Positions 2,027 to 7,920 of a DNA stretch of 7,920 nt are shown here, piece by piece. Origin of the DNA: a virus (taxonomy: Duplodnaviria; Heunggongvirae; Uroviricota; Caudoviricetes); the IMG/VR virus record IMGVR_UViG_2671180921_000010, one strand, 5' to 3'. The stretch's first letter is position 1; every line of letters begins with the position of its first letter. Below the pieces are notes generated by a model. The model did not search any database and had not been told where the DNA came from. It saw only the letters and a program-made list of their open reading frames with translations. The translations under genes and the position numbers were made by a program.

Positions 2027-2084
2027 AAAAAGGGCGGCAGAGCAGTCACGGAGTAAAACTGATACCGCCAAACGTCACCAGAAA
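2027..2084 (-). ncRNA. dicF: DicF small RNA (ftsZ-targeting antisense sRNA) with intrinsic terminator
   Basis: Reverse complement of 2027..2084 is TTTCTGGTGACGTTTGGCGGTATCAGTTTTACTCCGTGACTGCTCUGCCGCCCTTTTT-like (exact: TTTCTGGTGACGTTTGGCGGTATCAGTTTTACTCCGTGACTGCTCTGCCGCCCTTTTT), which matches the DicF sequence as I recall it. It ends in a GC-rich stem (GGCGG...CCGCC) followed by a U-tract. Located between ydfC-like and dicB. Exact processed 5' end not determinable here. Confidence 0.85.
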
Positions 2085-2959: not shown

Positions 2960-3038
2960 GCTGACCTCATTTCCCCTTAACGCCGGGGTAGCGGAACTGT
3001 TTGCTGAGAACACCGTGCGGTGTCTTGATGGAAAATAA

Positions 3039-3094
3039 TTTAGAATAACCTAACATGAGAGGCAAGTGTTTTTTGTTAGATTGATCTAACAAAA
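3039..3094 (-). promoter_or_regulatory. dicB-operon promoter/operator region: perfect 24-bp palindrome plus an imperfect second site
   Basis: TTTTGTTAGAttgaTCTAACAAAA at 3071-3094 is a perfect inverted repeat. A related imperfect site TTTAGAataaCCTAACA lies at 3039-3055. Both sit between the dicA stop (3128) and the ydfA-like start (2959). Candidate -35 TTGCCT and -10 TAAATT on the minus strand next to the palindrome are weak matches. Confidence 0.5.
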
Positions 3095-3127
3095 AGGGTG
3101 GGCGCAACTAATCACTTGAAAAGAATG

Positions 3128-3535
3128 TTATTTTATTGATTTATTTTTACGCGCTTTAAGCATTTCTTCGAAGAGTTTGTTGAAGTTTTCTACTCTTGCG
3201 CGCATTTCAGACAGCAAGGCTTCCTGCTCGGAAGATGGAAGAGCATCGAATAATTCGATCAATTCTTTGTGGTTGGGAGTTAGCTCTGTTTCCACATGAA
3301 GTTCTTGTGCAGGCACTGGTGCCTTGTCTTCGTCACCAAACATTAGCCATGTAGGTGAGCACTTCAGAGCATCCGCTAAAGCAAACAATCGTTTTCCGAC
3401 TGGCTGGGTTTCGTCTCTTTCCCATTGTGAAATTGTGACGTGAGCAACTCCAGCGAGGCGCGCGGCTTCTCGTTGTGTTAAGCGTAATTCTTTTCGTCGC
3501 GCCAGAACTCGCTGGCCCAGGGTTCTTGTATCCAT
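3128..3535 (-). CDS. dicA: DicA-like HTH (XRE-family) repressor, 135 aa
   Basis: Track ORF: MDTRTLGQRVLARRKELRLTQREAARLAGVAHVTISQWERDETQPVGKRLFALADALKCSPTWLMFGDEDK...MRARVENFNKLFEEMLKARKNKSIK. Clear HTH (LTQREAARLAGVAHVTISQWE); length and strong similarity to DicA as I recall it. Divergent from the dicC-like gene. Confidence 0.85.
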   Translation of the reverse strand: MDTRTLGQRVLARRKELRLTQREAARLAGVAHVTISQWERDETQPVGKRLFALADALKCSPTWLMFGDEDKAPVPAQELHVETELTPNHKELIELFDALPSSEQEALLSEMRARVENFNKLFEEMLKARKNKSIK

Positions 3536-3602: not shown

Positions 3603-3615
3603 AGAGGGGGATTTG

Positions 3616-3843
3616 ATGCTTAAAGTTGACGCAATTACTTTTTTTGGCAGCAAAACAAAGCTTGCCAATGCCGCAGGAGTGAGGCTGGCAAGTGTTGCTG
3701 CTTGGGGGATACTGGTTCCTGAAGGTCGCGCGATGCGTCTACAGGAGGCATCTGGCGGGGAGCTTCAGTATGATCCCAAAGTTTATGATGAATATCGTAA
3801 GACGAAGCGGGCGGGGCGGTTGAACAATGAAAATCACTCCTGA
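3616..3843 (+). CDS. dicC: DicC-like Cro-type regulator (75 aa from ATG)
   Basis: MLKVDAITFFGSKTKLANAAGVRLASVAAWGILVPEGRAMRLQEASGGELQYDPKVYDEYRKTKRAGRLNNENHS. SD GAGGGGG (3604-3610), 5-nt spacer, ATG 3616. The track's 3613 start is a TTG with too short a spacer. Strong similarity to DicC as recalled. Confidence 0.8.
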   Translation: MLKVDAITFFGSKTKLANAAGVRLASVAAWGILVPEGRAMRLQEASGGELQYDPKVYDEYRKTKRAGRLNNENHS

Positions 3844-5757: not shown

Positions 5758-6110
5758 GTGCACCGGCAACCATTCTTGATATGTGCTGTGGCAGCCGCAT
5801 GTTCTGGTTCGATAAGTCTGACGAACGGGCGATATTCAGCGATATCAGAAAAGAAGGATACACATTACGCAATGGGAGACGCTTGATTATCAACCCTGAC
5901 ATTATCGCAGATTTTCGTGCATTATCATTTGCAGACGCATCTTTTTCGATGGTTGTATTAGACCCTCCGCATCTTGAGCGTGTTGGTGATAACGCCTGGA
6001 TGGGAAAGAAATATGGACGGCTGAATAAAGATGCCTGGCGTGATGATTTGCGACAGAGATTTAAAGAAGCCTTTCGGGTGTTGAGGCCGCACGGCGTTCT
6101 GATTTTTTAA
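5754..6110 (+). CDS. Class I SAM-dependent methyltransferase-fold protein, probably truncated by an in-frame TAA at 6108 (reading frame continues to 6200)
   Basis: Motif I-like ILDMCCGSRMF, acidic FSDIR, motif IV-like VVLDPPH (DPPH), then LRPHGVLIF followed immediately by TAA. The same frame stays open for 29 more codons (WNETQIPVSQILALTDRKPVICQRTGKKR) before a stop at 6198-6200. 118 aa is too short to complete the fold after the DPPH strand. Confidence 0.55.
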   Translation: MSAPATILDMCCGSRMFWFDKSDERAIFSDIRKEGYTLRNGRRLIINPDIIADFRALSFADASFSMVVLDPPHLERVGDNAWMGKKYGRLNKDAWRDDLRQRFKEAFRVLRPHGVLIF

Positions 6111-6372
6111 TGGAATGAAACGCAAATACCGGTAAGCCAGATTCTGGCACTGACAGACAGAAAACCTGTTATCTGTCAACGAACAGGGAAAAAACGATAA
6201 AACCCACTGGATTATTTTTATGAAAGAGGCATCCAGTGAGTAGATTCGTAAGGCTACAGATACGTATATCTGAATAATTAAATTCAGTTCTGTAAATAAA
6301 ATTTAATCCTTAACCGGATGGATTTCTGCACCCTCAGAACATCAGGAGGCCGCCCGAAAGGGCGGTAGTGAA

Positions 6373-6555
6373 ATGCGAAAGTTCAAAATTATTATTGAAA
6401 CGGGAATAGCTGGTGGAGATTTTGAGGATGTATTCGAAGTGGACGATGACGCAACACCTGATGAAATTCATGACGGAGCATAAGAAATTTTCTTTAACTA
6501 CTGCAATTACTCATACCACGAAATAAAAGACGATGAGGAAGAACAAAGTGGCTGA
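6373..6555 (+). pseudogene. Small acidic protein gene (60 codons) interrupted by an in-frame TAA at 6481-6483
   Basis: ATG 6373: MRKFKIIIETGIAGGDFEDVFEVDDDATPDEIHDGA-TAA-EIFFNYCNYSYHEIKDDEEEQSG, stop TGA 6553-6555 overlapping the next gene's start. The downstream part has no in-frame start codon. AGGAGG at 6345-6350 is separated from the ATG by a hairpin (6352-6367). Confidence 0.35.
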
Positions 6556-6724
6556 TTTTTGTTCAGCTAAATATAACATCAGTTTTGAAGAGCGGGATGA
6601 ACTATTAATGGACTATGGTGAGTTACGCGGTGGAAGTGCTGCTGATGTCGAATCCTAGCGTGATGACTATGAAGCGGGAAAAACTCCGGTCGAAGCATAT
6701 TGTGATGAGTGGGGCGATGAATGA
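6533..6724 (+). pseudogene. Small protein gene (63 codons) interrupted by an in-frame TAG at 6656-6658
   Basis: ATG 6533, or GTG 6548 with SD GAGGAAG: MRKNKVADFCSAKYNISFEERDELLMDYGELRGGSAADVES-TAG-RDDYEAGKTPVEAYCDEWGDE, stop TGA 6722-6724 overlapping the ATG at 6721 of the next gene (ATGA). No in-frame start after the TAG. Confidence 0.35.
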
Positions 6725-7008
6725 GCGAGATTAATTATCAGGAAGGGCATGAAACGGCGGGGCAAGCAAAACCAGTGACATGGCGATATCGCTACGTGAA
6801 AAAAGGCGTTACGGACTTTCAGGGGAAGTAGTGGTCTGGTGACTGGAAATATGTACCGAAAAAAGAGGATTGTAACGACAGGCCGAACTATCAAATTCAG
6901 GCCTTATTCACTGCCTCACCAGTCCCGGTTACATCAGAAGAATTGGTTAAAGCTGTGCACTTTTATGAACAACTAAAACGCGAAAATCCACCAACATCCG
7001 GCAACTAG
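6721..7008 (+). pseudogene. Small protein gene (95 codons) interrupted by an in-frame TAG at 6829-6831
   Basis: ATG 6721: MSEINYQEGHETAGQAKPVTWRYRYVKKGVTDFQGK-TAG-WSGDWKYVPKKEDCNDRPNYQIQALFTASPVPVTSEELVKAVHFYEQLKRENPPTSGN, stop TAG 7006-7008. The 58-codon downstream part is protein-like and has no ATG. Confidence 0.4.
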
Positions 7009-7262
7009 ATTAATGGGTTAACTATGTCGGTTAAACGACCAGCCAACTGAAAAAGCGGAAACCTGATTACAGGTTGCCAGATAAGGCAATGAGCTACCTG
7101 GCGCGGAACGGACTGATAAGTATGGGGAATGTTTTACGATGAACCTTTAGACTAAAGAGTTTGTAACGCTATGTAAGTGATTTTTTCTGGTTTAGATATT
7201 TATATGTCCGGCCAAATTGAGGTGTGTTTAAATGTAATTGCACATTGATTGTAGGAGGAATA

Positions 7263-7442
7263 ATGAAAAACGCATTGCAGTTTTTGTTTGTTGCGTTCTG
7301 GTTGTTCGCATCATGTATGCCCATCATCTTCACAGCAAGGTATATGGAAAAAGTTGATGTTTTGATATTAATATTTGGATATATAAATGCCCTTTTTTTA
7401 GGGGTGTTCATGGCGGTCATGTGCATTGAATACTGGCGGTAA
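7263..7442 (+). CDS. Small hydrophobic protein, 59 aa, two predicted transmembrane helices, unknown function
   Basis: MKNALQFLFVAFWLFASCMPIIFTARYMEKVDVLILIFGYINALFLGVFMAVMCIEYWR. Consensus SD AGGAGG (7252-7257), 5-nt spacer, ATG 7263. Embedded in an AT-rich islet unlike the flanking sequence. The track's longer ORF from 7224 has no RBS. Confidence 0.6.
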   Translation: MKNALQFLFVAFWLFASCMPIIFTARYMEKVDVLILIFGYINALFLGVFMAVMCIEYWR

Positions 7443-7669
7443 ATACAGCGAACTCCATTGGTTTAGTTGGATATTTACTGTGCTGGACAAAAACGGTTTG
7501 CGGGGAAATCTTAGTTAAGTAGAATGACTGCGGGTGCTTGAGGCTATCTGCCTCGGGCATGGACACCAACGGCAGATAGAGAAAAGCCCCAGTTAACATT
7601 ACGCGTCCTGCAAGACGCTTAACATTAATCTGAGGCCAATTTCATGCTAGACACATGTAGGTTAGCCTC

Positions 7670-7918
7670 TTACGTGCCGAAAGGCACGGAGAAGCAGGCT
7701 ATTGTTAACACCAAGCTGTAATGTCCCCTTTGGGGATGCGGACGATTTCCTGGACGAGCCTGTTTAGGATTCTGTGTAAATCCCTTTTCTCCGAAGTGAC
7801 CGTCCAGCCGGTCACCGAACTCGATAATAAAGCGGCCCATTGCCATTCGCCAGTCCTTCAACGGCATCATCCATTTCTGGGACGCAGACTGGATTGCCAG
7901 CCACACCACTTTTTCCAC
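7670..7918 (-). mobile_element. C-terminal part of an IS256/Mutator-family-like transposase gene (partial; gene starts beyond the right window edge)
   Basis: Minus-strand ORF ...WLAIQSASQKWMMPLKDWRMAMGRFIIEFGDRLDGHF... matches the recalled C-terminal signature of IS256-family transposases (SKKW-MP-xxW-xA-xxF-I-F-DR). It then continues about 40 aa past the point where such proteins usually end (GEKGFTQNPKQARPGNRPHPQRGHYSLVLTIACFSVPFGT). Family assignment is from memory only. Confidence 0.4.
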
Positions 7919-7920
7919 CC

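Follow-up and report, generated by a model that had tools for sequence, protein, structure and literature searches.

Time and again, small membrane proteins of prophages have been shown to serve in exclusion, to act as toxins or to regulate transporters of the host. The Hok/Gef toxins are small, hydrophobic, prophage-borne peptides of the inner membrane; they have one helix, as do most type I toxins, and a cysteine-containing periplasmic tail, and their loci comprise the leader ORF mok, the antisense RNA Sok and an mRNA that folds back on itself. The small membrane-protein modulators AcrZ, MgrB and MgtS are chromosomally encoded, almost wholly transmembrane single-helix proteins that have known partners and presumably act by helix-helix contacts. 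Class II holins and pinholins such as S21 are phage-encoded, fit two transmembrane helices into about 60-70 residues, end in a charged cytoplasmic tail and have their genes beside the endolysin gene in the lysis cassette, downstream of Q. Lambdoid morons and superinfection-exclusion proteins such as T4 Imm and HK97 gp15 are small membrane proteins from mosaic cassettes of deviant base composition, with a promoter and a terminator of their own.

Here we report on an ORF for a predicted 59-residue membrane protein in a viral DNA stretch of 7,920 nt (the window, that is, the whole stretch that was analysed; IMG/VR record IMGVR_UViG_2671180921_000010, Caudoviricetes). It resembles the Hok/Gef toxins as a small hydrophobic prophage-borne peptide, and its ORF is linked to hok in both lineages in which it occurs; however, it has no sequence relationship to them (Pfam, NCBIfam), has two predicted helices instead of one, lacks the cysteine-containing periplasmic tail, and comes without a mok-like leader ORF or a fold-back mRNA structure; Rfam showed no Sok-like antisense RNA above threshold. 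As for the features of type I toxins, a small hydrophobic membrane peptide is present (59 aa, GRAVY 1.27, two helices), and a structured mRNA that occludes the ribosome-binding site is absent at 7143-7300 (z = 0.40). With AcrZ, MgrB and MgtS the protein shares its size class, its almost wholly transmembrane character and a presumed helix-helix action, but it would be a hairpin and belongs to a prophage, and no homology to these modulators was found. The two transmembrane helices in a phage-encoded protein of this length recall the class II holins, from which it differs in having no charged C-terminal cytoplasmic tail and in its gene, which belongs to the early region ahead of Q and is not placed beside the endolysin gene; searches for holin families gave neither a PHROG match nor a significant fold match. 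With the lambdoid morons and the exclusion proteins it shares its small size, its membrane character and a mosaic cassette of deviant base composition; neither a promoter nor a terminator belonging to the cassette was detected, and no homology to them was found.

Prophage setting and the AT-rich cassette

The window is part of a Qin-like lambdoid prophage of E. coli, with dicB/DicF, dicA, dicC and the replication genes as markers (Table 1). Within 1880-2083 on the minus strand, DicF is adjoined by an STnc100-like match that stays below threshold (38.8 bits; gathering score, 47), and full STnc100 copies are found near Q in phage vB_EcoS-640R1 (L003). The rightward order runs from dicC and the replication genes through the 59-aa ORF to hok/sok, and in related loci the ORF precedes Q (ydfT) and falls between this antiterminator and the replication genes. 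The small nin-type ORFs that match positions 6373-7142 are intact in phage vB_EcoS-640R1 (L003 5166-5771). In strain ATCC 8739, a frameshifted pseudogene called by PGAP (7622-8043 of its locus, equivalent to 6721-7142 of the window) ends at 7142; the gene of which the window retains the 3' end at this place is intact in loci of the L232/L274 type. Because the upstream string is broken here and the 59-aa ORF is whole, the ORF stands intact between decayed neighbours. The sole terminator-like hairpin of the interval 6950-7760 is on the minus strand within the decayed upstream gene (7060-7075, AACCTGTAATCAGGTT followed by a T-run).

Table 1. Features of the window discussed in the text (positions in nt; +, strand as given; -, opposite strand).
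Feature	Position	Strand	Remarks
DicF RNA	2032-2083	-	Rfam, 76.7 bits
dicA	3128-3535	-	
dicC	3613-3843	+	
YdaT-like, O-like replication, DUF977 and methyltransferase genes			Identified against annotated ATCC 8739 and phage records
Decayed small nin-type ORFs, including a DUF7167 gene	6373-7142		Frameshifts and stops; frameshifted pseudogenes in ATCC 8739 (PGAP)
Remnant 3' end of decayed upstream gene (...MSYLARNGLISMGNVLR, then stop)	7089-7142	+	Stop overlaps a vestigial ATG (ATGA)
AT-rich mosaic cassette ('islet')	7143-7488		346 nt, 36% GC (0.361); delimited by homology with other lambdoid loci
Perfect 13-nt palindrome CTTTAGACTAAAG	7145-7157		Left edge of the cassette; unique in the window
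Shine-Dalgarno motif AGGAGG	7253-7258	+	Read from the sequence; 4-nt spacer (AATA) to the ATG
59-aa ORF (type A), MKNALQFLFVAFWLFASCMPIIFTARYMEKVDVLILIFGYINALFLGVFMAVMCIEYWR	7263-7442	+	ATG start, 59 codons and stop (7440-7442)
hok promoter, inferred	7498-7525	+	TTGCGG, 16-nt spacer, TAGAAT; read from the sequence; kept in all hok loci collected
hok/sok leader region	7532-7703	+	Rfam RF01794, 104.1 bits, E = 1.9e-23; mok start at 7645
Nested IS elements	7703-7920		ISNCY-family end from 7703, interrupted by IS1414 (IS256 family)
IS1414 copy	~7733-7749 to window end	-	From the annotation of matches

The original prediction had described an AT-rich islet with a sharp drop in base composition, and this drop is confirmed: the G + C content in 200-nt windows over 7101-7500 is 0.365, 0.335 and 0.380, against 0.44-0.50 in the flanks. 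For the cassette as a whole, the value of 36% compares with 44% in the left flank, 50% in the right flank and 46.5% in the entire window. The region has the lowest G + C content of the window, in which other AT-rich patches are located at 3001-3200 (0.35) and 6101-6300 (0.355). The homology with loci of the L242/L219/L232 type ends at ...TTTTACGATGA (7142), the left flank encoding ...GLISxxxVLR and a stop that ends there, and restarts at AAAAACGGTTTGCGG (7489). In these loci, an 88-nt segment with an unrelated 27-aa hydrophobic ORF takes the place of the cassette between the common flanks. Both this mosaic replacement and the deviant G + C content fit the horizontally acquired moron that had been proposed; of the features that define a moron, a promoter and a terminator of its own, a stringent scan detected neither.

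The palindrome at the left edge of the cassette has a counterpart (CTTCAGTCTGAAG; L302 705-717) in the locus of the type B paralogue described below, which is 58% identical. The two copies differ by a compensatory double change amid otherwise poorly conserved DNA, so the palindrome has been preserved, and it could be a protein-binding site, a recombination site or a small hairpin. A search for repeats around the cassette yielded only short two-copy matches, which are probably due to chance.

The 59-aa ORF and its type B paralogue

The ribosome-binding site had been described as a perfect AGGAGG with ideal spacing. The motif is present, but its spacer of only 4 nt is among the shortest that still function, and is therefore not ideal. 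In 14 of the 31 haplotypes AGGAGG is replaced by AGGGGG (7256 A>G), which still permits G-U pairing; the corresponding motif of type B is GGGA, 7 nt ahead of its ATG. The candidate sigma-70 elements claimed for 7150-7230 did not reappear in a consensus scan of 6950-7760, which returned 0 promoter-like sites against a shuffle mean of 1.8 and was so stringent that it missed the hok promoter too. No terminator was detected on the plus strand in the same interval, including the stretch between the stop (7442) and the hok promoter (7498). Folding of the leader (7143-7300) gave no above-chance structure that would sequester the Shine-Dalgarno motif (z = 0.40 against shuffles), and no Rfam family exceeded its threshold within 7143-7488; a 'sok' match on the minus strand (7409-7590; 18.9 bits, E = 0.78) is at chance level.

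The hydropathy profile places hydrophobic segments at approximately residues 4-25 and 33-55, and with a GRAVY value of 1.27 the ORF ranks first among the 29 frames of the window that start with Met and span 50 aa or more. The AlphaFold2 model (9-sequence alignment, mean pLDDT 74) has helices at residues 2-26 and 28-58, so that both approaches agree with the two-helix membrane protein originally predicted. The C-terminus (...CIEYWR) follows straight after helix 2, without a charged hydrophilic tail. A 72-aa version with a GTG start at 7224 was rejected; the extension is absent from type B, and a GAGG abuts the GTG. Frameshifted database variants of the protein (P0019, P0022, P0024, P0025 and others) arise at a run of seven T within the ORF (7393-7399), and various foreign junctions occur just past codons 25-30 (~7335-7350) in P0030-P0035, which suggests that this AT-rich DNA is a hot spot of insertion or rearrangement.

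The protein matched nothing in Pfam at E values up to 10, nothing above threshold in PHROGs, NCBIfam and PADLOC, and nothing above threshold among the PDB sequences in a profile search. A fold search with the AlphaFold2 model against viral structures returned generic helical hairpins, all with E >= 0.9. These results bear out the statement that no family could be recognised. The only other matches were weak and of the hydrophobic-composition type (TIGR03647, 14.5 bits; phrog_6298, E = 0.12); an assignment to the small subunit of sodium/substrate symporters (TIGR03647) was dismissed, the score being obtained with type B (E = 0.031, cut-off 26.05) and type A giving no match. Full-text literature searches on peptide strings and context found nothing relevant.

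Of the 5426 complete E. coli genomes, 1570 (~29%) carry a 401-nt region with the ORF of the window (type A) at 95-100% identity; the region is also present in three phage records and in many IMG/VR and metagenome contigs. In a collection of species-representative genomes, type A was found in records of E. coli and Shigella only, and the family is confined to these two. The proteins are all named 'hypothetical' or 'membrane protein' in the databases, and the RefSeq PGAP annotation of ATCC 8739 leaves the ORF unannotated. A match with 53% identity in this genome collection (L006) is not a divergent homologue: the assembly is riddled with indels but carries the same allele, and the sequence of L303 is similarly error-laden.

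An exhaustive HMMER search of 1.84 billion representatives retrieved, next to near-identical copies, one 59-aa relative with 41% identity (P0037, E = 1.2e-8), which represents type B; the main type B form (P0042) was located by a profile search on at least 1000 contigs. The type B ORF (L302 829-1008) is situated in a prophage remnant of ~2 kb between ttcA and uspF (L304 8001-10043). This remnant is located at the Rac attachment region and also contains fragments of an integrase gene and of a sitD-like ABC permease gene, together with what is left of a hok coding sequence. Type B is present in 1045 of the 5426 complete E. coli genomes (~19%), and no feature is annotated beneath the match in the records listed. 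The record L304 (NZ_CP141085.1), a 385-kb 'plasmid' of E. coli KE48, carries the ordinary chromosomal genes smrA, dgcM, zntB, dbpA, ttcA, uspF, ompN and ldhA, and might be a replicon assigned in error or a large piece of the chromosome.

The ORFs of types A and B are colinear from the start to the stop codon, equal in length and free of indels, whereas the alignment of their flanks needs several gaps. In the frame of the ORF 24 of 59 residues are identical, while the remaining five frames reach 13-17 (permutation p = 0.002). The DNA identity is 58%, with 25, 18 and 31 differences at the successive codon positions, and the NG86 estimates are dN 0.47 and dS 1.98 (dN/dS ~0.24), the synonymous sites being saturated. 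Different codons are used for 14 of the 24 conserved residues. Invariant positions are W13 and S17-C18-x-P20-I-I-x-T24 in helix 1, and F38-G39-xx-N42-A43-L44-xx-G47 in helix 2, followed by E56-x-W58-R59. Such a divergence bears the signature of long-term constraint at the protein level, and because of this comparison, which consists of one A-B pair, the 59-aa ORF is very probably a real, uncharacterised coding gene.

Polymorphism within the types is sparse. Eleven of the 12 variable sites of type A are nonsynonymous and one is synonymous, and all three variable sites of type B are nonsynonymous; these numbers fit neutrality (P ~0.13-0.22, from site counts). Current purifying selection on the ORF is not detectable, and its present constraint is weak. 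The ORF is intact in 267 of 271 collected copies (98.5%, counted without de-duplication by contig); 5% of point mutations would yield a stop in its 60 codons, and because the divergence is so small, this intactness is weak evidence of coding.

Linkage to the hok/sok locus

The most informative context of the ORF is the hok/sok locus directly downstream, which the original prediction overlooked, as it did the paralogue. The promoter, the leader and the mok start of a hokD-type locus are retained in the window despite the broken hok. The start codon of hok (7701-7703) was destroyed by the insertion of an ISNCY-family element, and the homology with intact loci breaks off at 7702, within this codon. 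The intact hokD-type locus of L003 has gcaggctATGAAGCAG in place of the gcaggctATTGTTAAC of the window; in this phage (vB_EcoS-640R1) the same arrangement runs on into an intact mok and a HokD-type hok. The minus-strand ORF at 7670-7918 we take, also from the annotation, to be a typical C-terminus of an IS256-family transposase. The exact nested configuration of IS elements (at least 80% query cover) recurs in only 2 of the 5426 complete genomes.

A hok leader is located directly downstream of the ORF in 104 of 107 distinct type A contexts; 82 of these retain a whole hok, and in 22 it is broken. In the type B locus a deletion has removed the promoter, the leader and the 5' half of hok, and a 62-nt remnant of the hok coding sequence (81% identical) lies 55 nt past the ORF stop. 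Since both types adjoin hok, the pairing of the ORF with hok predates the split between A and B. The ORF has outlived hok at least twice, namely in this window and in the type B lineage, and as it remained whole after hok was lost, it is independent of hok.

A tiny hydrophobic ORF fills the slot upstream of the hok promoter in 79 of the 111 distinct sequences of a hok-anchored sample (L204-L301) that is partly biased toward the 59-aa type; these ORFs belong to five unrelated families. The families are 27 aa (MTWPEAF...), 29 aa (MLVLKCALAI...DRLSD), 34 aa (MSDDISL...ERLGN), 59 aa (the ORF of the window) and 81 aa (MQSDFLQ...GAVWPLGIMF...) in length. The 27-aa family is not restricted to hok loci but is found beside Ea22/EaA-like genes in Stx phages as well, and the pattern may therefore simply reflect the content of lambdoid accessory regions. 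We give very little credence to the broader proposal that prophage hok/sok loci systematically carry a tiny transmembrane ORF upstream as a component of the module, be it a modulator, an immunity factor or a co-toxin of Hok; if it were true, the hok/sok locus would be a two-protein membrane cassette and not a classical RNA-only type I toxin-antitoxin system.

Proposed role and alternative explanations

Our preferred reading, to which we give slightly less than an even chance, is an accessory gene of Qin-like lambdoid prophages that encodes a 59-residue two-pass hairpin of the inner membrane, belongs to the early operon and acts by helix-helix association. The ORF would be part of the rightward delayed-early (nin-type) gene string, and because the scan revealed neither a promoter nor a terminator for it, co-transcription with the early operon is most likely; it is at least as likely as a moron-type transcript of its own. 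The gene would presumably be transcribed with this operon after derepression of the prophage. The product is predicted to be a two-pass helical hairpin of the inner membrane, and both of its ends are probably in the cytoplasm, since R2, K3 and R59 are located at the termini of the paralogue, whose loop is acidic. It would act inside the membrane by association of helices, either with itself or with a membrane protein of the host or the phage, and the invariant faces of helix 1 (W13...T24) and helix 2 (F38...G47) would be the likely contact surfaces, a mode of action that we infer from the conservation of these motifs only. Our best guess of its function is a delayed-early accessory protein of the inner membrane that would be accessory or modulatory and not a lysis protein; a holin is unlikely because the charged C-terminal tail is absent and the gene is outside the lysis cassette, and the toxin, superinfection-exclusion and defence roles named in the original prediction are conjectural.

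The protein might instead be a membrane-damaging peptide that resembles type I toxins or pinholins and forms oligomers through the stripe G39-xxx-A43-xxx-G47 and the membrane-buried N42, so that a leak or pore arises. The depolarisation that this would cause could aid abortive infection, post-segregational killing or the timing of lysis beside Hok. We regard such a peptide, and equally such an effect, as possible but unlikely. The small size and strong hydrophobicity, the strong Shine-Dalgarno motif, the tight linkage to a known membrane toxin locus and the conserved small-residue stripe with an Asn in helix 2, a kind of motif that often marks oligomeric membrane helices, would all suit it. 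However, Rfam shows no antisense or overlapping RNA family, the leader shows no structure above chance, unlike the mRNAs of hok, ldr, tisB or ibs, neither a hydrophilic nor a charged tail is present, the gene is outside the lysis cassette, no PADLOC or holin-family match was obtained, and the ORF stays intact and unregulated in the decayed remnants of more than 1000 genomes, which would be odd for an unopposed toxin. The adjacency to hok, ancestral to both paralogue types, and the recurrence of tiny hydrophobic ORFs of five unrelated families in the hok-upstream slot could also point to a functional partner of hok/sok, for instance a membrane protein that modulates or buffers the insertion or activity of Hok, the upstream tiny transmembrane ORFs being part of the system. 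This is improbable in our judgement, because the ORF has been kept intact with hok destroyed, both in the window and in the whole type B lineage, and the 27-aa family is also found away from hok in a sample that partly favours the 59-aa type; moreover, to our knowledge the classical hok/sok loci (plasmid R1, chromosomal hokA-E) require no upstream ORF partner.

A different possibility is that the ORF never was, or no longer is, a functional gene, being a frame that happens to be open in AT-rich DNA and is carried along with hok and the prophage. The ratio of 14 nonsynonymous changes to 1 synonymous change within the types would fit this view, as would the frameshift variants at the T-run and the several insertion junctions in the databases, the lack of annotation by RefSeq in the records checked, the promoter scan that found none and the very narrow taxonomic range. 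Against it stand the frame-specific conservation between A and B, with saturated synonymous sites and identical ORF boundaries between flanks that need indels, the Shine-Dalgarno motif kept in both types, and the intactness of nearly all collected copies although the neighbours are pseudogenes; we consider it decidedly unlikely. Finally, the opposite strand harbours an 85-aa ORF (7426 to 7169) that is annotated in two phage GenBank records under the names 'hypothetical protein' or 'hornerin'. It has hardly any chance of being the true gene and was rejected as spurious: it has no Shine-Dalgarno motif and no family match (PHROGs included), it acquires a premature stop through 7236 A>T in many haplotypes (11 among those listed), the reverse frames of A and B share only 14-17 identical residues, and an open antisense frame is expected opposite a hydrophobic ORF.

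The delayed-early accessory membrane protein that we prefer would most likely be the product of an ordinary orphan accessory gene of prophages rather than a new kind of system, and the 59-aa family alone opens no long-standing question. Because it has been kept beside hok/sok through deep divergence, it is a reasonable candidate for screens of expression, toxicity and exclusion. If expressed, it would add one more uncharacterised family of small membrane proteins to the E. coli pan-genome.
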